In this document: positions 2,656-29,020 of the stretch, piece by piece
Layout: each line of letters begins with the position of its first letter
How positions within the stretch are numbered: the first letter of the stretch is position 1
NCBI GenBank assembly: GCA_031393555.1
Contig: JANMVW010000317.1
Span: forward strand, 1 to 48,739
Direction: 5' to 3'
Source: Acidobacteriota bacterium
Lineage (GTDB): Bacteria; Acidobacteriota; Polarisedimenticolia; Polarisedimenticolales; DASRJG01
Length of the DNA stretch: 48,739 nucleotides
The notes under the pieces: generated by a model
Told to the model about the DNA's origin: nothing
The model's input: only the letters and a program-made list of their open reading frames with translations
The model's database searches: none
Program-made: the position numbers and the translations under genes

Positions 2656-3819
2656 ATGGTTAGCACGCCGGTCTACCCTCGCCTCCTGAAACCCCCACGC
2701 GAGAGCTTCTTCCTGTTCGGCGTGAGAGGAGTCGGCAAGAGCACCTGGGCCGAATCCAAGTTCCGCGAGGCACGGCGAGTCAATCTCCTCGACGAGGGCG
2801 TGCATCACAGCTTCCTCGCGGACCCCTCTCTATTCGCGGCCGAACTCCTGGACCTGCGGCGAGGGCAGTGGGTCGTCGTGGACGAGGTCCAGAGAATCCC
2901 GAGTCTCTTGAACGACGTTCACCGCCTCATCGAAGCGCGCGGCCTGCGCTTCGCCCTCCTCGGATCGAGCGCCCGCAAGCTCAAGACCGCCGGGACGAAC
3001 CTGCTCGCGGGGCGCGCCACGTGGAAAACGATGTTTCCCTTGGTTCCCGAGGAGCTTGGCGACGACTTCTCGTTGGACGAGGTCTTGGGCTACGGGAGTA
3101 TCCCGCTGGTGTGGAAGTCGGACGACAAGCGCAAAACGCTCGAAGCTTATGTCCAGCTCTACCTCAAGGAGGAGATCCGGGGCGAGGCGCTGGTGCGAAA
3201 CCTCCCCGGATTCGTCAGGTTCCTTCCGATTGCTGCCCTGTTCCACGGCCAAGTCATCAATGTCGCCGGGATCGCTCGCGACGCGGGAACCGCTCGCACA
3301 ACGGTCGCAGGCTACCTCGACATCCTCGAGGACACGCTGCTCGCCGCGCGCCTGCCCGCCTACGAAGCGCGCCTCAGGGTGCGCGAGAGGAAACACCCCA
3401 AGCTCTACTGGGTCGATCCCGGGATTGTGCGAGCGGTGAAGCGACAACTCGGCCCTGTCGCGGGCGAGGAGCGCGGAACGCTGTTCGAAGGCTGGGTGTT
3501 CACGCTGCTCCGAACGTACGCCGAAGAGCGGGAACTCTACGACGAGATCTTCTACTGGTCCCCTCCCGCGGGCTCCGCGACGGAGGTTGATTTCCTCCTG
3601 CGCCGCGGCCGGGAGTTTCTTGCGATCGAAGTGAAATCCAGCGCACGGTATTCATCCGCGCTCACGTCAGGGTTGCGCGCGATCTCCGACCTTGCACATC
3701 TCGTCCGACGAATCCTCGTCTTCACCGGACCTCGCCCGCTCTCAACACCGGAGGGTATCGAGGTCTGGCCAGTTCGCCGTTTCGTGGAAGCCGTCTCGTC
3801 GGGCGCGCTCTGGCCCTGA
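2656..3819 (+). CDS. AAA+ ATPase, COG1373 type (AAA_14 + DUF4143) with C-terminal PD-(D/E)XK-like motif
   Basis: Walker A GVRGVGKST, Walker B VVVDEVQ, LLGSS, PKLYWVDPG, EVDFLL...AIEVK; 387 aa. Confidence 0.9.
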   Translation: MVSTPVYPRLLKPPRESFFLFGVRGVGKSTWAESKFREARRVNLLDEGVHHSFLADPSLFAAELLDLRRGQWVVVDEVQRIPSLLNDVHRLIEARGLRFALLGSSARKLKTAGTNLLAGRATWKTMFPLVPEELGDDFSLDEVLGYGSIPLVWKSDDKRKTLEAYVQLYLKEEIRGEALVRNLPGFVRFLPIAALFHGQVINVAGIARDAGTARTTVAGYLDILEDTLLAARLPAYEARLRVRERKHPKLYWVDPGIVRAVKRQLGPVAGEERGTLFEGWVFTLLRTYAEERELYDEIFYWSPPAGSATEVDFLLRRGREFLAIEVKSSARYSSALTSGLRAISDLAHLVRRILVFTGPRPLSTPEGIEVWPVRRFVEAVSSGALWP

Positions 3820-21847: not shown

Positions 21848-23014
21848 ATGAGCGTGATCCAGCGAGCCGAGCATCTGCGACGCCTGTCGAGCCTGACGCG
21901 GCAGTTCCCGGTCGTCGGGATCTTGGGCGCGCGCCAGGTCGGAAAGACGACTCTCGCCCGGCAGCTGGCCAAGGCGCATCGCGGACCGGTGACCTACTTC
22001 GATCTTGAGAGCGCCGAAGACCTGGCCCGGCTCTCGGATCCCTTGCTCGTGCTTCGGCCGCTGACGGGGCTCATCGTTCTCGACGAGGTTCAGAGGCGTC
22101 CAGACCTCTTCACGCAGCTGCGCGTGCTCGTGGACGAGCCGAAGACCCGCCGCAAGTTCCTCGTGCTCGGGAGCGCATCGCCCGAGCTGCTGCGACAGAC
22201 CTCGGAGACCCTGGCCGGACGCATCGCGTACCACGAGTTGGCGGGCTTGTCTCTCGAGGAAGTGGGTCGACAACACTGGTCGAAGCTGTGGCACCGGGGC
22301 GGGTTCCCGCGATCTTTTCTGGCGCGGTCCGAATCCGACAGTCTTCAGTGGCGCAAGGCCATGATCCGGACGTTCCTCGAGCGGGACATCCCGGCTCTTG
22401 GCTTGCGGATGCCTGCGGCCACGCTCCGGCGGTTCTGGATGATGCTGGCTCATTACCACGGACACGTGTGGAACGCTTCCGAGTTCGCTCGATCCTTCGG
22501 TGTCGCCCACACGACGGTGCAACGCTATCTCGATCTGCTCAGCGCAACTTTCATGGTTCGGCAGCTCCCCGCGTGGCACGAGAACATCGGCAAGCGGCAA
22601 GTCAAGGCTCCGAAGGTCTATCTGAGGGATAGCGGCCTGCTTCACGCGCTGCTCGGTCTCGACGCGGGTGGCGCCATCGAGTCGCATCCGAAAGTCGGCG
22701 CCTCGTGGGAGGGGTTCGCTCTCGATGCCGTCGTGACGCAACTCGGAGCGCTTCCGGAAGAGTGTCACTTCTGGGCGGCTCACTCCGGCGCGGAGCTCGA
22801 TCTTCTGATCGTCCGGGGCAACGTACGGCGTGGATTCGAGTTCAAGAGAACGACGTCTCCGGCGAAGACGCGCTCGATGCACGTCGCGCTCGAAGATCTC
22901 CGGCTGTCGTCGGTCGACGTTATCCACGCGGGATCGAATTCTTTCTCTTTGCACGCGAAGATCCGAGCGATCGCGCTGAGCCGTCTGCTCGAGGATCTCA
23001 AGCCGCTGAAGTAA
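21848..23014 (+). CDS. AAA+ ATPase, COG1373 type (AAA_14 + DUF4143)
   Basis: GARQVGKTT, IVLDEVQ, LGSAS, SETLAGRI, KAPKVYLRDSGLLH, ELDLL...FEFK; 388 aa. Confidence 0.92.
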   Translation: MSVIQRAEHLRRLSSLTRQFPVVGILGARQVGKTTLARQLAKAHRGPVTYFDLESAEDLARLSDPLLVLRPLTGLIVLDEVQRRPDLFTQLRVLVDEPKTRRKFLVLGSASPELLRQTSETLAGRIAYHELAGLSLEEVGRQHWSKLWHRGGFPRSFLARSESDSLQWRKAMIRTFLERDIPALGLRMPAATLRRFWMMLAHYHGHVWNASEFARSFGVAHTTVQRYLDLLSATFMVRQLPAWHENIGKRQVKAPKVYLRDSGLLHALLGLDAGGAIESHPKVGASWEGFALDAVVTQLGALPEECHFWAAHSGAELDLLIVRGNVRRGFEFKRTTSPAKTRSMHVALEDLRLSSVDVIHAGSNSFSLHAKIRAIALSRLLEDLKPLK

Positions 23015-23028
23015 CGACGCGTCAGCGG

Positions 23029-23130
23029 TTGCTCGCCTCAGGCGCCGCCATTCACTCGAGCACGCCCGGCCAGTTCTTGTCGGCCTTCGCCACGTACCCC
23101 GGGATGTCGAGCTGCCATTTTTTCTGCACG
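23029..23130. repeat. Direct repeat copy 2 (102 bp), 3' end of the intact YHS gene
   Basis: 101/102 identical to 21677-21778. Confidence 0.95.
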
Positions 23131-23516
23131 TCCAGGTCGTAGTTCAGGTAGAGCTTCCCCTCGACGATCGACCAAGCGTTCGGGTCGATATCGACGAGGC
23201 GCCCTTGCGAGACGGCGTAGGCGCAGTAGCCCCCGTATTGCGGGGCGTATTTCTCAGGCGTCTTCTTGAAGACATCGCGATGCTCGGCCGTGGCAAAGCG
23301 CCACTTGGCCCCCTTCCACTCGAACTCGAACTCCGCTTTTCCCGGCAGAGGCTTTCCGTCGACGAAGTAGGCGACCGGGTCGTAACCGTGGATCGCCTTG
23401 TTGCCGAAAAGCGTGGTGTTCACGGGGTCCTTGGACCAAGCGGCCGTGGGCACGACGAGGAACGACACAACCAACGCGACCAGGCCCGCGATGCGGGCTG
23501 CGGTGAAGGGCTTCAT
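23052..23516 (-). CDS. Exported YHS-domain protein
   Basis: SD AAGGAG; signal peptide; AIHGYDPVAYF, WRFAT, PEKYAPQYGGYCAYAV, IVEGKLYLNY. Confidence 0.9.
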   Translation of the reverse strand: MKPFTAARIAGLVALVVSFLVVPTAAWSKDPVNTTLFGNKAIHGYDPVAYFVDGKPLPGKAEFEFEWKGAKWRFATAEHRDVFKKTPEKYAPQYGGYCAYAVSQGRLVDIDPNAWSIVEGKLYLNYDLDVQKKWQLDIPGYVAKADKNWPGVLE

Positions 23517-23724
23517 GGGTTCTCCTTTGGATCCAGAAGGCTATCAGCCCTGTCGACGATCCTGCTGCACCATTCCGGCTCCATCCGTGCGCGGAAGCAA
23601 GAACAACCCTGGCCGAGGTTGCGGCGACGCAACCCAGTCGGACGTCGTTGCGTGGTTGGCATCTTCGTCGTTGCGGTACCCTCAGGTCGTCGGTCCCGAT
23701 CCACCGCTCCTCCTTGGTCGTTCC

Positions 23725-23753
23725 TTGACGCCACAGTTCCAGGGCCGTAGGCT
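23725..23753 (+). promoter_or_regulatory. Sigma70-type promoter of NYN unit 1
   Basis: TTGACG (23725-23730), 17-nt spacer, TAGGCT (23748-23753). Confidence 0.65.
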
Positions 23754-23759
23754 TCCGGC

Positions 23760-23834
23760 GGAACGAAAATTCCAATCCCCCCTATCCCTTCGCGGATAGG
23801 GTGCGAGGCTGCCGAAAGGCAGCCTCTGCTTTTT
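23760..23834 (+). ncRNA. Structured leader RNA: two hairpins plus U-tract (attenuator or small-RNA candidate)
   Basis: CCCTATCC-cttcgc-GGATAGGG (23780-23801); GAGGCTGCC-GAAA-GGCAGCCTC (23805-23826); TTTTT directly before GTG 23835. Confidence 0.55.
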
Positions 23835-24227
23835 GTGGCTCGCGCCAACGTCTACGTCGATGGGTTCAACCTCTACTACGGCTGTGTCAAAGACACGCCG
23901 TACAAGTGGCTCGACCCCGCAAGGCTTGCAGCTCTGCTGTTGCCTCGAGGCTGTCACGTCCATCGGGTCCGTTATTACACGGCTCGCGTGAGCGGACGCC
24001 CCGGAAATCTCAACGCGCCGAGGCGTCAGGAAACCTAGCGCATTGCACGTCGAGAATTCGGAATTCAAGTCGGTATCGGTTGCCCTCACGAACGTCCGAG
24101 TCAGGTCCTCCGGCGTCAGGCGGATTTCGTTCGACCGATACGCGTGGGCGTCCTGCGCGTCAGTCAACTCCCGACGACCCTGAGTGATGGCCACGGCACG
24201 TTTACGAAGCCCTCGTCATGGCGATGA
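23835..24227 (+). pseudogene. NYN/LabA-DUF88 (PIN-like) ribonuclease with internal deletion and in-frame stop
   Basis: N-terminus VYVDGFNLYYG...YKWLD...VRYYTA...RRQET, then TAG (24036-24038). The same frame continues with a NYN-like C-terminus RIARREFGIQVG...ADFVRPIRVGVLRVSQLPTTLSDGHGTFTKPSSWR*. The central EKxxDV and SxDxD motifs are absent. Confidence 0.8.
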
Positions 24228-25295
24228 CCGACTCAGGTCGAACACACTTCGCCACTCCCCGCCCAGCGACTTGTAAGTCGTCTCGGGCGCCCACACCTGA
24301 CCGCCGGTGTGCTCGACCTGGGCGTAGGCCCATCGCGTCACCTGCCGCGAAACGTCGAAGTCGAAGGGCAGGTGACGGGCGATGAAGCTCGCCGTAAGCT
24401 CGTCCTTCGCGTCCTCGTTGCGCCGGAGCCACCGTTCGAGGAAAGGCACGTCGGCCAGCAGGTCGCTCTTGCGCGAATTGCAGCCGTCATCCGCCAGGAC
24501 GAAGTTGTGGGCAAGATCGACCGGATACCGACGCCACGGCACAAAGTGGTCGACGGCCCCGCGCCCGCGCAGCCGGGCGTCGCAGTAGAAGCACTGATCC
24601 TTTTGCAGTGGGCCGAGAATCGTGCGGTAGTCCGAGAGGTCCGCGCGGGGTGTCCCGAAGAGAAACTCCTCGAGGTCGACGGCCTGCCCGAGTACGTCGT
24701 GGTTGGCGCCCAGCTGCCGGACGAACTGCGCCCATGCCGAACGGGCGAGGCCCGTGACGAGCGGATGGAATTGGCGCAGGTTGAACGCGACACCCGGTTT
24801 CAGGACGATGGCGGTACCGCGCTCCCGGTTCTCGTAAAGGAACTCCAGCTTGCGGCCCTTCAACGTCTGGAGCTTCCACAACGGCATGACGGCCACGACG
24901 TGCTTCACTTTGGCGATCAGCGACCTCCACTCGCGCGAATTTCGGCGGACCTCGACTTCGTAGGCCGACACCCGCTCGCGGACTTCGAAGACGCGGGTCA
25001 GAACCTCAGCCTGCTTCCCGGCGTTTTGCCGCAGGACCACCGCATCTTTGGCGCGTCCCGCGGGAGACCAGGGCGCAGCCTGGCGCCAGTAGTAGGCGAC
25101 GAACTTCTCGGCGATCTTCTCGATTGGGATTTCAAGCTCTCGTCCGTCGTCGACTTCGGACTCGATCGCGAGATCGGCGAGGGCTATCAGCAGCGCAAAC
25201 TTGTAGCTCGCCACGAACTGGCCTTCGTCGAGCAGCAGCTGGATGTTCGCGAGGAACGCGATCTGCTCGTCCGAGGTTGGCGGGCGAGACGTCAC
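24216..25295 (-). CDS. HNH endonuclease domain protein
   Basis: N-terminal ASYKFALL motif; C-terminal CFYC...VDHFVPW...HNFVLADDGCNSRKSD. GTGA-coupled to the HIT gene. Confidence 0.85.
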   Translation of the reverse strand: MTSRPPTSDEQIAFLANIQLLLDEGQFVASYKFALLIALADLAIESEVDDGRELEIPIEKIAEKFVAYYWRQAAPWSPAGRAKDAVVLRQNAGKQAEVLTRVFEVRERVSAYEVEVRRNSREWRSLIAKVKHVVAVMPLWKLQTLKGRKLEFLYENRERGTAIVLKPGVAFNLRQFHPLVTGLARSAWAQFVRQLGANHDVLGQAVDLEEFLFGTPRADLSDYRTILGPLQKDQCFYCDARLRGRGAVDHFVPWRRYPVDLAHNFVLADDGCNSRKSDLLADVPFLERWLRRNEDAKDELTASFIARHLPFDFDVSRQVTRWAYAQVEHTGGQVWAPETTYKSLGGEWRSVFDLSRSSP

Positions 25296-25678
25296 GGCTT
25301 CGTCCAGTAGTCGGCTTTCTCCGGAAGCACCCAGCGCACGCCCCCGCGCGGGTCCGGGCGGTCGCCGTCGTACCGCGGGATGAGATGCACGTGCAGATGG
25401 GAAACCGTCTGCCCGGCGGCAGCGCCGTCGTTGATGCCGATCGTCCAGCCGTCGGGCCGATGTGCCTGGACTACGGATTCTTTGGCGAGCTCCAGCGATT
25501 CAAGAATCGCGCGGCGTTCCTCGGGTGTCGTTTCGAAGAACGAGCCAACGTGACGGTGCGGAATGACGAGGACGTGACCCGGCGAAACGGGGAAGCCATC
25601 GCGTAGCACAAACACCAAGCTGTCGTCATGCAGGACGCGATCGCGATCCGGCCGACAGAACGGGCAGGCAACGCTCAA
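25292..25678 (-). CDS. HIT-family nucleotide hydrolase
   Basis: TTG start at 25678 after GGAGG; CPFC, DGFPVSPGHVLVIP, GINDGAAAGQTVSHLHVHLIPR; 128 aa. Confidence 0.92.
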   Translation of the reverse strand: MSVACPFCRPDRDRVLHDDSLVFVLRDGFPVSPGHVLVIPHRHVGSFFETTPEERRAILESLELAKESVVQAHRPDGWTIGINDGAAAGQTVSHLHVHLIPRYDGDRPDPRGGVRWVLPEKADYWTKP

Positions 25679-25852
25679 ACGGAGTCCTCCGTCGCAGGCA
25701 AGAGGCACGGATAAGGGATTGTAGGCGAGGTTGCGGAGAAGCAACCCATTTTGGATTTGATCCGGGCGGAAGAGTTCCACGACCGCGGTAAGCTTGGAAG
25801 GTCGGTCCTGGCGGCCCCCTCGTCGCCCGCTCTGCGCGGCGTCGGAACATCC

Positions 25853-25881
25853 TTGACGGTCGTTGGATCGGTCGGTAGATT
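25853..25881 (+). promoter_or_regulatory. Sigma70-type promoter of NYN unit 2
   Basis: TTGACG (25853-25858), 17-nt spacer, TAGATT (25876-25881). Confidence 0.65.
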
Positions 25882-25887
25882 CTTCGA

Positions 25888-25971
25888 CGTGCTTCCTCAC
25901 GGGGGAGCTTCAAACCGCCCCAGGGCCTGCGCGGCGCCATTCGGTTTCGAGCCGCCCTGGGTATTTTCTTC
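25888..25971 (+). ncRNA. Structured leader RNA: two stems plus U-rich tract
   Basis: GCTTCCT-cacg-GGGGAGC (25891-25908); CCCAGGGC (25919-25926) pairs with GCCCTGGG (25954-25961); then TATTTTCTTC and the TTG start. Confidence 0.5.
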
Positions 25972-26349
25972 TTGAGCGTCTGGGCGACACGCTCCATCGT
26001 GTTCATCGATGGCGCCAATCTGTATTCGTCCTTGAAGGCGAGCGGGATCTGGGCCAATCGCATCGACCCCTACAAGGTCGCGAAGAAGCTCGTCGAGCAG
26101 CGAGCCCTGATTGAAGTTCGTTATTACATCGCCGAGATCCAGCGGGCAGCGCCTGGCCGCGTCTATCGGGCTTTCCGCGAGTTGATAGCGCTGCTCGGTC
26201 GGCATGACGACGTACGAATCTGCACAGGGCATATTCAGGAAATCCAAGAGGCCAACCCTGCGTCACCCCATGTCGCAGGGCGACTGATCGACGTTTGCGA
26301 TGTGGCGATTCGGCTCGATCCGGACTGGTTTGAGGACTGTGGCCGATGA
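25972..26349 (+). pseudogene. NYN/LabA-DUF88 ribonuclease, probably internally deleted in frame
   Basis: IVFIDGANLY...EVRYY... is joined directly to a NYN-like C-terminus (ASPHVAGRLIDVCDVAIRLDPDWF). Only 125 aa, lacking the EKxxDV and SxDxD catalytic motifs. Confidence 0.65.
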
Positions 26350-26421
26350 CGCCGACGCCCCAATCGACCATCCAGGGAATCCATGTTAAGTTCCCCGCCT
26401 CGTCGCGAATTCGGGGAGGCT

Positions 26422-27069
26422 ATGGACACTGAGATGAATTTTCGGAGCTGGACTGTGAGAGCCGCAACGATGCTGCTCGTGATGGCCGTTTGGCACCTCC
26501 CGTCCTTATCTAAGGAAGGGGACGGGAACCTGGTGAGCCTCCGTTGGGCGGTGGGGGCTCTGGACGCCGCGGGCAACAAACCGACCGCGATCCGTCAGGA
26601 CACGAAGCTGGAGACGGGGACCAAGCTCAAGCTCCTCGTCGAGCCGCAGTCCAAGGGCTCGGTGTATCTCCTCCTCCTCGATTCGTCGGGCGAGTTGCAG
26701 GTGCTCTACCGAAAGTCGTCGTCCGTGACCAAGGCCGCCGACGGGAAGCCGACCTACATCCCGCCCGGGAGCCAGTGGTTCGAGCTCGAGAAGGGCGCGG
26801 GGATGGAGACGTTCTTCCTGCTCGCGTCGGTCGAACCTCTCAAGGAATTGGAAAAGCTGCTCGACAGCCATGCGCCCGCGCCTGCGGTCGTCGAGGAAGT
26901 CCGGCGGGTCAACAAGGCCAACCGCAATTTCGCGCGGCCGGTCGAGCGACCGGTGATGATCGGGGGACAAACCCGCGGCACGCAAGACACGGCCGGAGCG
27001 ATCGACCAGCTCGCCGTCGAGGTCGAGGCCGAGAAATTCTACGGAAAGACGATCACGATTGATCATTGA
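26422..27069 (+). CDS. Exported DUF4384-like protein
   Basis: SD GGGAGG before ATG 26422; signal-like helix; GTKLKL...VYLLLLDSSGELQVLY...YIPPGSQWFEL...GMETFFLLASVEPL. Confidence 0.7.
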   Translation: MDTEMNFRSWTVRAATMLLVMAVWHLPSLSKEGDGNLVSLRWAVGALDAAGNKPTAIRQDTKLETGTKLKLLVEPQSKGSVYLLLLDSSGELQVLYRKSSSVTKAADGKPTYIPPGSQWFELEKGAGMETFFLLASVEPLKELEKLLDSHAPAPAVVEEVRRVNKANRNFARPVERPVMIGGQTRGTQDTAGAIDQLAVEVEAEKFYGKTITIDH

Positions 27070-29020
27070 TTCGAGGAATCGCCCCCTCGTCACCGGGGCG
27101 CTGCTCGCGGCGGTGGCTCTCCTCGGATTCCTCGCCCTGCGCTCGCTTCCCGCCCTCTTCGAGCCGCTGAGCTTTCAAACGACCGATCGTCTGTTCGAGC
27201 TGCGCGCGCGCATCCCGTCGCTTTCGCCCAATCGGGACGATGCGGTCGTCCTGATCGATGTCGACGACAAGAGCCTAAAACAGATCGGCACCTTTTACCT
27301 CGGCCGTGAAGAAGAAGCCCGGCTCGTCCGCAACCTCGGGCTGGCGGGCGTGGCGGCGCAGGCGCACGACGTGATCTACGCGGCCCCGCTTCCGGGCGAC
27401 GAGGCGCTCCTCGCGGCGACGACCGGCGCCGGCAACGTCTACTTCGGGATGGCGGCCGGCTTGTCCGACGCGGCAGCGGCCTCCGTCTCGACGGGAGCGA
27501 TCCCCGAGCGCGATCGCTGGCGGCCCAAGATCGTCGGCGAGGCCTCGACGGTCTTTGCGGCAACGAGACCGTTGGTGACGTTCCCCCTGATCGCCACGGC
27601 CGCGAGGGGCCTCGGTTTTCTCGACATCCGCGTGGATCGCGACGGCGTCTATCGCCTCGCCCCGCTCCTCGGACGAGACGGCGACGCCTTCGTGCCGTCG
27701 CTGTCCCTGCGCGTCGTCTGCGACTACCTCGGCGTGACGCCCGATCGCATCGAAGTGGCGCCGGGGCGCGCCGTCACCCTGCGCGGCGCGCGACGGCCCG
27801 GGGGCGACGCGCCGCGCGATATCGTGATACCGATCGACGACCGCGGACGGATGGTCGTCAACTACCTCGGCGCATGGGAGTCCCTCAAGCACTATCCGGC
27901 CGGCGCGATCTGGGAGGCGTCCGACGATCGCTTCGCGATGATGGACCTCAAGGATGAGCTCCAGGGAAAACTGGCCTTTCTCACCTGGGTGACGAGCGGG
28001 AGCGGCGACGTCGGGCCGGTGCCCGGAGACCCGCAGTATCCGCTGGGTGGAATTCACGCGAACGTGATGAACACGATTCTTACCGGAAACTTCCTCCACC
28101 GGCTCACGCCCATGAAGACCTTCGCGGTGGTGACGCTCCCCCTGCTGTTGATCCTCTATGCCGCCTCGTTGCGATTGCGGACGCTGCCGTTTCTCGCCGC
28201 GGCGATCGGACTCGTCTTGCTGCACGCCGCGGGGGCGATGGCGGCCTTCCTCTGGGCCCATCTGATCGTGGACATCCCGGGGCCGATCCTGGTCCTCGTC
28301 GGCGGGACCATCGTCACGGCCGCGTACCACTACCACCTCGAATCCGAGGCGAGAGCGGTGCTGCGCAGCACGTTCGACGCGTATTTCCCTCCGCGGGTGG
28401 TCGATCGCATCCTCCATGCGTCGAGCGAGTTCGCGCTGGGCGCCCGCAAGCGGGAGATCTCGATACTCTTCAGCGACATCAAGGGGTTCACGCCCCTCAC
28501 GGCGGCGATGGATGCCGGCCACGTGAGAACCCTGCTCAACGAGTACTTCGGCCGCATGATCGAGATCGTCTTCCGCCACGAGGGCACCCTCGACAAGTTC
28601 CTGGGCGACGGGCTGATGGTCTTCTTCGGCGATCCCGAGGTCCAGCCCGATCACGCGGCGCGCTGCGTGGCGGCCGCGATCGAGATGCAGCAGGCCGCGC
28701 GGCAACTCGACCGGGAATGGCGGGCGCGCGGCGACATGCCGCTGGCGATCCGCGTCGGCATCAACACCGGAGAGGCGATCGTGGGGAACATGGGCTCGAC
28801 GCGGCGCCTGACCTACACGGCGCTCGGCAGGGCGGTCAACGTCGCCCAGCGCCTCGAGGCCAACGCGCCGGTGGGCGGTATCTTGATCTCGGAGCGGACC
28901 AACGTGCAGCTCGCCGGCGCCTGCAAGACCTTGCTCCGGGAGCCGATCCAGGTCAAAGGGATCGACGAGGACCTCGTGGTTTACGAAGTGATCCAGGACG
29001 CGGTGGGGGACGAGACGTGA
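27059..29020 (+). CDS. CHASE2-domain class III adenylate cyclase
   Basis: N-terminal TM; CHASE2 motifs VVLIDVDDKSL, DRDGVYR, GGIHAN; three TMs; cyclase motifs FSDIKGFT, DKFLGDG, GINTG, YT...VNVAQRLE. Confidence 0.92.
   Translation: MIIDSRNRPLVTGALLAAVALLGFLALRSLPALFEPLSFQTTDRLFELRARIPSLSPNRDDAVVLIDVDDKSLKQIGTFYLGREEEARLVRNLGLAGVAAQAHDVIYAAPLPGDEALLAATTGAGNVYFGMAAGLSDAAAASVSTGAIPERDRWRPKIVGEASTVFAATRPLVTFPLIATAARGLGFLDIRVDRDGVYRLAPLLGRDGDAFVPSLSLRVVCDYLGVTPDRIEVAPGRAVTLRGARRPGGDAPRDIVIPIDDRGRMVVNYLGAWESLKHYPAGAIWEASDDRFAMMDLKDELQGKLAFLTWVTSGSGDVGPVPGDPQYPLGGIHANVMNTILTGNFLHRLTPMKTFAVVTLPLLLILYAASLRLRTLPFLAAAIGLVLLHAAGAMAAFLWAHLIVDIPGPILVLVGGTIVTAAYHYHLESEARAVLRSTFDAYFPPRVVDRILHASSEFALGARKREISILFSDIKGFTPLTAAMDAGHVRTLLNEYFGRMIEIVFRHEGTLDKFLGDGLMVFFGDPEVQPDHAARCVAAAIEMQQAARQLDREWRARGDMPLAIRVGINTGEAIVGNMGSTRRLTYTALGRAVNVAQRLEANAPVGGILISERTNVQLAGACKTLLREPIQVKGIDEDLVVYEVIQDAVGDET

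Follow-up and report, generated by a model that had tools for sequence, protein, structure and literature searches.

Broken NYN ribonuclease genes in an Acidobacteriota contig adjoin conserved structured RNAs in a layout resembling type III toxin-antitoxin loci

In type III toxin-antitoxin systems (ToxIN, CptIN and TenpIN), a promoter is followed by a non-coding RNA, a Rho-independent terminator and an endoribonuclease gene that depends on read-through, the layout reported for them (Fineran 2009; Blower 2012). We analysed two units of comparable layout, each made up of a promoter, a hairpin leader and a gene of the NYN ribonuclease (RNase) family, in a stretch of Acidobacteriota DNA (contig JANMVW010000317.1; 48,739 nucleotides, nt), hereafter the window, which is an entire 48.7-kb contig from a 3.79-Mb metagenome-assembled genome (G000). 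Like type III loci, both units of the window and 61 of 77 related loci have an RNA gene with a Rho-independent terminator directly upstream of the RNase gene; both kinds of system are found on plasmids and prophages, and relatives on E. coli plasmids have 33-nt tandem repeats. They differ in that the RNA is present as a single copy in the window and in 80 genome loci, with repeats only on E. coli plasmids of the ColE1 type, in that the nuclease has an NYN/PIN-like fold instead of a ToxN-like one, and in that the RNA can be divergent or convergent to the RNase gene. We give about an even chance to a type III-like arrangement, with a plentiful, terminated RNA that binds the NYN RNase and neutralises it.

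Among RNA antidotes of an RNase that are structured and not repetitive, the nearest precedent with tests behind it is AbiF with RCd22, a C. difficile prophage RNA with abiF motifs that is reported to neutralise the AbiF RNase in cis and in trans, with direct RNA-protein binding (10.1101/2025.04.15.648962). As far as that preprint's account goes, the likeness lies in a conserved structured non-coding RNA adjoining an RNase-type toxin, borne by a prophage; the differences lie in the protein, which is Abi_2/HEPN-like there and NYN here, and in the RNA, which here has no Rfam match, the abiF motif included. On the protein side, the PADLOC defence candidate HEC-09 is the same family as the intact orthologue of the unit 1 NYN gene, and the HEC-09 preprint describes a MARF1-like NYN domain, as found here (10.1101/2024.01.29.577857). 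The terms "non-coding" and "ncRNA" have 0 occurrences in the main text of that preprint (Payne et al., 10.1101/2024.01.29.577857), which reports that no defence phenotype was found.

An earlier note on this DNA, made from the sequence alone, had described for both units a TTGACG-17 nt-TAGnnT promoter, a leader of two stems, a U-rich run and a weak GTG or TTG start without a Shine-Dalgarno sequence. The unit 1 elements are given below, the RNA being scored with R2, a covariance model of class 1 RNA built from 21 copies.

23725..23753, + strand: unit 1 promoter, with the −35 box TTGACG at 23725-23730, a 17-nt spacer and the −10 box TAGGCT at 23748-23753 (from the sequence)
23760..23773, + strand: P0, an extra 5′ hairpin (GGAA-CGAAAA-UUCC) particular to the acidobacterial clade of the window (from the fold)
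23773..23838, + strand: class 1 NYN-associated small RNA, with a C-rich 5′ end, hairpin P2 at 23780-23801, terminator hairpin P3 at 23803-23829 and U5 at 23830-23834 (R2 73.1 bits, E 5e-18)

The 75-nt leader of unit 1 (23760-23834) folds into three hairpins followed by U5, with the GTG at 23835 touching the U tract; its folding energy of −38.5 kcal/mol (z −6.25) was equalled by 0 of 200 shuffles, and P3 with its U tail scored as terminator-like in a terminator scan. The promoter has 8 of 12 matches to the consensus, under the scanner's cut-off of at least 9 of 12, and is kept at an equal distance in the orthologues from genomes G008, G025 and G001. These three orthologues, found among 60 related genomes, all retain the promoter and the three hairpins, and they differ in ways that preserve pairing: both sides of the P0 stem change together (GAGC/GCUC in G025, GAAGC/GCUUC in G001), and the base of P3 also shows both-sided changes. 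The copy at 23773-23838 is the sole R2 match in the whole genome. Thus the promoter, the hairpin leader, the U run and the weak start without Shine-Dalgarno sequence were borne out for both units by sequence, scan and fold, the GTG of unit 1 and the TTG of unit 2 lacking a Shine-Dalgarno sequence that neighbouring genes have; the two-stem description held for unit 2 and not for unit 1, with its three hairpins. Terminator-like sites found by a single-sequence scan were not in significant excess (8 seen vs 5.2 expected), and our support for the leader RNAs therefore comes from their conservation in relatives and not from such scans.

A genome scan for the unit 1 NYN family (tblastn, one genome per species) returned at least 596 loci, and the best 80 of these (50-99% identity) were taken; by record title they belong to Acidobacteriota, Chloroflexota, Gemmatimonadota, Planctomycetota, Actinomycetota, Pseudomonadota, Saccharibacteria and others. 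A common pattern adjoins the NYN gene in nearly all 80 loci, consisting of AUAUCCCCCC, a first hairpin that UUCG frequently closes, GYGC, another hairpin with GAGGCC...GGCCUC and lastly UGCUUUU. Searching 83 sources with R2 gave 82 matches at E ≤1e-4, and class 1 RNA was found at 77 of the 80 genome loci, which encode the NYN family of 207-209 amino acids (aa), a Saccharibacteria locus (L013) included. In a second, independent collection, the IMG/VR viral contigs, it was found at 25 of 26 NYN loci (match cut-off E ≤0.01). The R2-negative genome loci were L027, which is cut by a contig end, L053 and L069, and the negative viral locus was L155; by eye, the expected site in L053, L069 and L155 holds a promoter, a pair of hairpins and a U tract, all in diverged form.

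The alignment also carried strong covariation, since 96.4% of cells were paired and compensatory changes occurred in 18 of 19 pairs, with 0 of 500 shuffles reaching any observed measure; the R2 alignment is fitted to its model, which favours pairing, a bias addressed by slid controls, in which 31-52% of cells paired. The homologue test proposed in the earlier note, conservation and covariation of the leader, thus came out in favour of a conserved RNA. Rfam 15 gave no match in the window at the gathering score, none in either leader at E ≤10, and none at E ≤1 in nine related loci, the abiF motif included. The unit 1 leader is a real structured RNA absent from Rfam 15.

The genomic arrangement of this RNA is not fixed. 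It lies upstream of the NYN gene and on the same strand in 61 of 77 loci (about 530 nt distant in L052), upstream and divergent in 6, and downstream and convergent in 10, where its U tail falls −5 to +19 nt from the NYN stop codon; two further R2 matches, one on a Paenarthrobacter plasmid and one in a Mycobacterium prophage, are likewise convergent to the NYN gene. At the divergent loci L046, L067 and L070 the RNA heads no gene, because a convergent AAA_30 helicase gene lies ahead, into which the RNA runs and which the only frames on the RNA's own strand overlap. A sigma-70-like promoter with at least 9 of 12 matches precedes 49 of 78 RNA copies, ending 4-22 nt before the motif and, in 34 of these 49, 5-7 nt ahead of its first base, while the 3′ end has at least four U in six positions in 70 of 78 copies. 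Class 1 RNA is accordingly modelled here as a gene in its own right and not only a leader, because it has its own promoter and terminator and because 16 of 77 loci encode it divergently or downstream of the NYN gene; its predicted product is a primary transcript about 65 nt long. Where the RNA lies in the usual place, the NYN start codon stands 0-30 nt past the U tract and, since it comes after the terminator, the NYN gene would depend on read-through.

Apart from the RNA, no protein family recurred among 150 flanking open reading frames (ORFs) of the 80 loci. About 26 of these 150, by our own classification, were integrases, transposases, relaxase-type helicases, or HEPN, Abi_2, TIR, SMODS or restriction genes, and the others were mostly housekeeping genes or had no match. 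Since no partner recurs and the flanks hold mobile-element and defence genes, the module appears self-contained and mobile. The NYN family occurs on 447 plasmid records and 3 phage records.

The RNase genes of the window are both damaged, as the following features show.

23835..24038, + strand: NYN gene 1, N-terminal remnant of 67 codons ending in TAG (91% identity to the intact 209-aa orthologue of G008)
24039..24227, + strand: NYN gene 1, C-terminal remnant in the same frame past the TAG (translation through the stop, DNA alignment)
25972..26349, + strand: NYN gene 2, a derivative with an open frame of 125 codons, shortened by an internal deletion that keeps the frame (end-to-end alignment with homologues of 203-215 aa)

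DNA alignment with G008, a genome of the same genus, revealed in gene 1 a single 240-nt deletion corresponding to orthologue bases 204-443, whose junction itself makes the TAG and at which no obvious microhomology was seen; the gene is left without the catalytic core (EEKGSDV ... SNDSD). Gene 2 is without about 87 residues, including the EKGVDV and SGDADF blocks. The first motif, DGFN or DGAN, is retained in the window genes, and the EEKGSD and NDSD/SGDAD motifs, which are invariant in the family alignments, are deleted in both. Both RNase genes thus lack the catalytic core, so the window is predicted to encode no working toxin. Because both have lost this core and both RNA genes are intact, we read the two units as relics of RNA-RNase modules, with intact RNA genes and broken RNase genes. 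The suggestion in the earlier note that a terminated RNA serves as antitoxin, substrate or autoregulatory element of an NYN RNase therefore stands in part: the leaders are conserved, NYN-linked RNAs with their own promoter and terminator, but the NYN genes beside them in the window have no catalytic core.

Pfam NYN covers only model positions 3-43 of 145 in gene 2, at 24.3 bits against a cut-off of 24.2, and gave no match for the 67 aa of gene 1; family homologues carry a precomputed PF01936 assignment. The intact gene 1 orthologue matches PADLOC HEC-09 over positions 1-202 of 203 (E 7e-41), the N-terminus of gene 2 matches it as well (E 1.6e-7), and the two window proteins align with each other at 32% identity. 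Contrary to the earlier description of the two genes as unrelated, they belong to a single NYN family as two of its branches. The structures nearest to an AlphaFold model of this family (pLDDT 92.2) were NYN 2qip and MARF1 (5yaa, 6fdl), and a PDB sequence search with the family profile gave 0 matches. In some records, family members are named "6-hydroxy-3-succinoylpyridine 3-monooxygenase HspA" (P0038; plasmid matches H12, H16, H22 and H30), a name that fits poorly with the modelled NYN nuclease fold. The 125-aa form of gene 2 makes up a cluster of its own, with 5 sequences at 97% identity.

Damage to the RNase gene beside a retained RNA is a repeated finding among relatives. R2 matched 9 of 61 genomes (60 related genomes and G000), the weakest matches, those of G030, G054 and contig C97 of G023, looking doubtful. 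The state of the NYN gene adjoining the RNA was as follows.

G008: intact
G025, first copy: intact
G025, second copy: remnant only
G001: in-frame TAG
G018: 42-codon fusion of the N- and C-termini
G023: truncated
G019 and further copies in G023: RNA without an adjoining NYN gene
G000, the genome of the window: two decayed NYN genes beside retained RNAs

Repeated loss of the RNase core together with retention of the RNA fits a toxin-antidote pair. As a separate observation, three independent internal deletions have removed the NYN core and left the two termini in frame with each other, with products of 42 codons at L118 (G018, 1541-1696) and 131 and 125 codons in the window.

The plasmid relatives bring the comparison closer to type III loci. 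E. coli plasmids of the ColE1 type (about 4.6 kb), whose NYN protein has 42% identity, carry in succession a promoter, four C-rich hairpin units, a strong terminator, GGAG and a TTG start. The hairpin array has a 33-nt period and 2.6-3.3 copies according to Tandem Repeats Finder (TRF), and its unit, ACCCCCCUGUGGC-GU-GCCGCAGG, resembles the C run and P2 of class 1 RNA. The repeat stretch is present in 17 plasmid records, two of the matches being about 30 nt longer. This array has the type III toxin-antitoxin layout and thereby points to the first hairpin unit as the putative functional core. TRF run on 95 loci found no repeat array adjoining the NYN gene except that of one E. coli plasmid (L093). 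The absence of tandem repeats stated in the earlier note was thus correct for the window, which has a single RNA copy of each leader, and repeats exist in the E. coli plasmid relatives.

Further leaders and repeats were noted alongside these. Two complete class 1 RNA copies stand in tandem upstream of the NYN gene at L061 (1358-1484) and at L153 (1357-1488). NYN homologues at 26-35% identity are found on an E. coli plasmid (L092), a Xanthomonas plasmid (L095) and a Klebsiella IncR plasmid (L096); by eye and in single-sequence folds, the leader about 110 nt upstream of their NYN start has a hairpin with a common AUUAAGUU, a strong terminator and then the start codon, and it may be a third RNA class. 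On the Klebsiella plasmid, a 37-nt repeat in 24 copies (L096, 1-896) lies about 600 nt upstream of the NYN gene and is probably a plasmid repeat region unconnected to it. In a Dehalococcoidia genome (L020), C-rich arrays of 92-nt and 70-nt repeats (35-460 and 3352-3485) lie on either side of the NYN locus.

Unit 2 follows the same plan with a different RNA, which we scored with a second covariance model, R3.

25853..25881, + strand: unit 2 promoter, with TTGACG at 25853-25858, 17 nt and TAGATT at 25876-25881 (promoter scan, 9 of 12 matches)
25886..25972, + strand: class 2 NYN-associated small RNA, with P1 at 25891-25908, P2 at 25919-25961 and a U-rich tail at 25962-25971 touching the TTG at 25972 (fold; R3 99.9 bits)

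The promoter is the lone promoter-like site listed in 22500-27500, where shuffles gave an expectation of 0.5, and it is kept in L100, L103, L098 and L099. Taken alone, the fold is weak (z −2.12, equalled by 6 of 200 shuffles), and by single-sequence statistics unit 1 is the only one to stand out. L100-L103 (73-83% identity) retain the promoter, a P1 hairpin altered on both sides of its stem, the linker UUCAAACCG, the CCCCAGGGC...GCCCUGGG stem and a U tail touching the start codon, and L098 and L099, at 32-36% identity, share the class 2 plan; compensatory changes were seen in 4 of 18 pairs among seven sequences. R3 had one match outside its training set, L127 (E 1.2e-5), and within the order it matched only 3 of 39 genomes, those with the NYN type of unit 2, all three being training sequences. 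Searched over the whole window, R2 misses the unit 2 leader, and R3 misses every class 1 locus searched; because the two models do not cross-match, we treat the leaders as two classes and claim no homology between them. The unit 2 leader represents a second RNA class, conserved in 8 loci, for which the evidence is thinner than for class 1, and the two leader classes together are two RNA motifs missing from Rfam.

In the type III-like arrangement, a strong promoter would yield a structured RNA of about 65-90 nt ending in an intrinsic terminator, and the NYN gene, 0-30 nt past that terminator, would be expressed solely through read-through. The RNA would bind and neutralise its cognate NYN RNase as a type III-like antitoxin does, the terminator would hold it in large excess over the enzyme, with read-through setting the ratio, and the recognised unit would probably be the C-rich 5′ stretch together with the first hairpin. 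Binding, neutralisation and toxicity are the parts that we infer. Several points weigh against this arrangement. Most loci hold a single RNA copy and not a repeat array, and the toxin fold, in the AlphaFold model and by structure comparison, is NYN and not ToxN-like. HEC-09, cloned together with what is presumed to be its native promoter region, is reported to have given no protection from any phage tried (10.1101/2024.01.29.577857), which speaks against a defence role. The 80 genome loci are the best tblastn matches and so represent a single clade within a family of over 7,600 members (7,652 matches among 8,000 candidates scored), class 2 comprises 8 sequences only, with every copy upstream on the same strand, and at the plasmid loci L092, L094, L095 and L096 (enterobacterial, Xanthomonas and M. 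intracellulare) R2 gave nothing or weak matches, the terminated leaders of these more distant plasmid homologues being recognised by eye alone. Moreover, retention of the RNA beside a broken gene could also be neutral decay, with the RNA outlasting the gene by being short.

Other roles for the RNA have to be set against the same evidence. RNase E (rne) and RNase III (rnc) regulate their own mRNAs via the leader, and a structured 5′ region ahead of a ribonuclease gene is common to them and to our loci, but here the RNA ends in a terminator of its own and may lie separately from the RNase gene. An autoregulatory leader or attenuator, whose terminator throttles transcription while the NYN RNase binds or cuts its own leader and so sets its own level, would suit the 61 of 77 loci with the RNA directly upstream on the same strand and no space for a second promoter, as well as the start codon that abuts the U tract in the window clade. 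We nevertheless consider it unlikely, since the divergent or convergent RNAs of the remaining 16 loci cannot be NYN leaders there and the tandem repeats on E. coli plasmids would be unexpected; in addition, no antiterminator pairing was seen by eye in the alignments, a formal search for which was not made. If instead the RNA were a required cofactor, serving the activity of an NYN ribonucleoprotein as a structural, activating or guide component and not inhibiting it, its C-rich 5′ end could for instance pair with G-rich targets; near-obligate linkage whatever the orientation, a conserved single-stranded C-rich 5′ end and the lack of any other conserved partner would all fit. RNA genes persisting beside dead NYN genes would be unexpected for a mere cofactor, however, part of the C run lies within P2, and the placing of a terminator before the gene gives the excess of RNA that is typical of antidotes, so that we regard this possibility as rather improbable. 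The more specific proposal that the RNA is the specificity subunit of an RNA-guided NYN ribonuclease, its single-stranded C-rich 5′ end pairing with G-rich target RNAs such as phage or plasmid ribosome-binding sites, seems to us very unlikely, though if true it would make these modules an RNA-guided RNase system that is independent of CRISPR and very widespread.

Base-pairing small RNAs typically have a C-rich 5′ end, a terminator hairpin and a U tail, and all three are present here, with GGAGG after the terminator in some NYN leaders; the RNA might on that account be a base-pairing antitoxin of the type I kind, its C-rich end masking the ribosome-binding site on the mRNA of the NYN gene or on some other mRNA. 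The window clade, however, has no Shine-Dalgarno sequence to mask, the NYN gene of L051 seems to have no leader, the −10 box standing 7 nt ahead of its GTG, and where the RNA is convergent its overlap with the 3′ end of the NYN gene does not exceed 5 nt, all of which leaves this explanation with very little probability. Should the RNA neutralise the enzyme, as in the type III-like arrangement, the loci would constitute a fourth type III-like toxin-antitoxin or abortive-infection family, built on a different nuclease fold and spread far more widely than the known three (at least 10 phyla, plasmids and prophages); this would provide a function for the large "LabA/DUF88" NYN family and would bear on whether HEC-09 should be tested with its RNA or lacking it. 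With the E. coli plasmid version, the idea can be tested directly. Literature searches, which did not cover subscription journals, found no paper describing the RNA or an NYN type III toxin-antitoxin system.

Between the two units lies a further pair of genes, which is outside the RNA-NYN units.

24216..25688, − strand: two-gene operon, encoding a 359-aa HNH-like protein (24216-25295) and a HIT protein (25292-25688; Pfam HIT E 3e-23)

The two genes overlap by 4 nt, the start of the HIT protein being in our choice a TTG with GGAGGA upstream. The 359-aa protein has no Pfam match and weak matches to PADLOC PtuB-like HNH models at residues 221-280, and the HIT protein weakly matches PADLOC ThsC (E 6.5e-13), so the operon may be a defence pair. 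The one Rfam hit, to CRISPR-DR28 inside the HNH-like gene (24561-24584; E 1.1, with 22 bits where the gathering score is 35), was rejected as chance. Upstream of unit 1, an AAA_14/DUF4143 ATPase (21848-23014, + strand) matches the PADLOC defence candidate PDC-S01 (E 4.9e-82), and with this ATPase, the HNH-like/HIT operon and the two NYN units, this region of the window looks like a small defence island.

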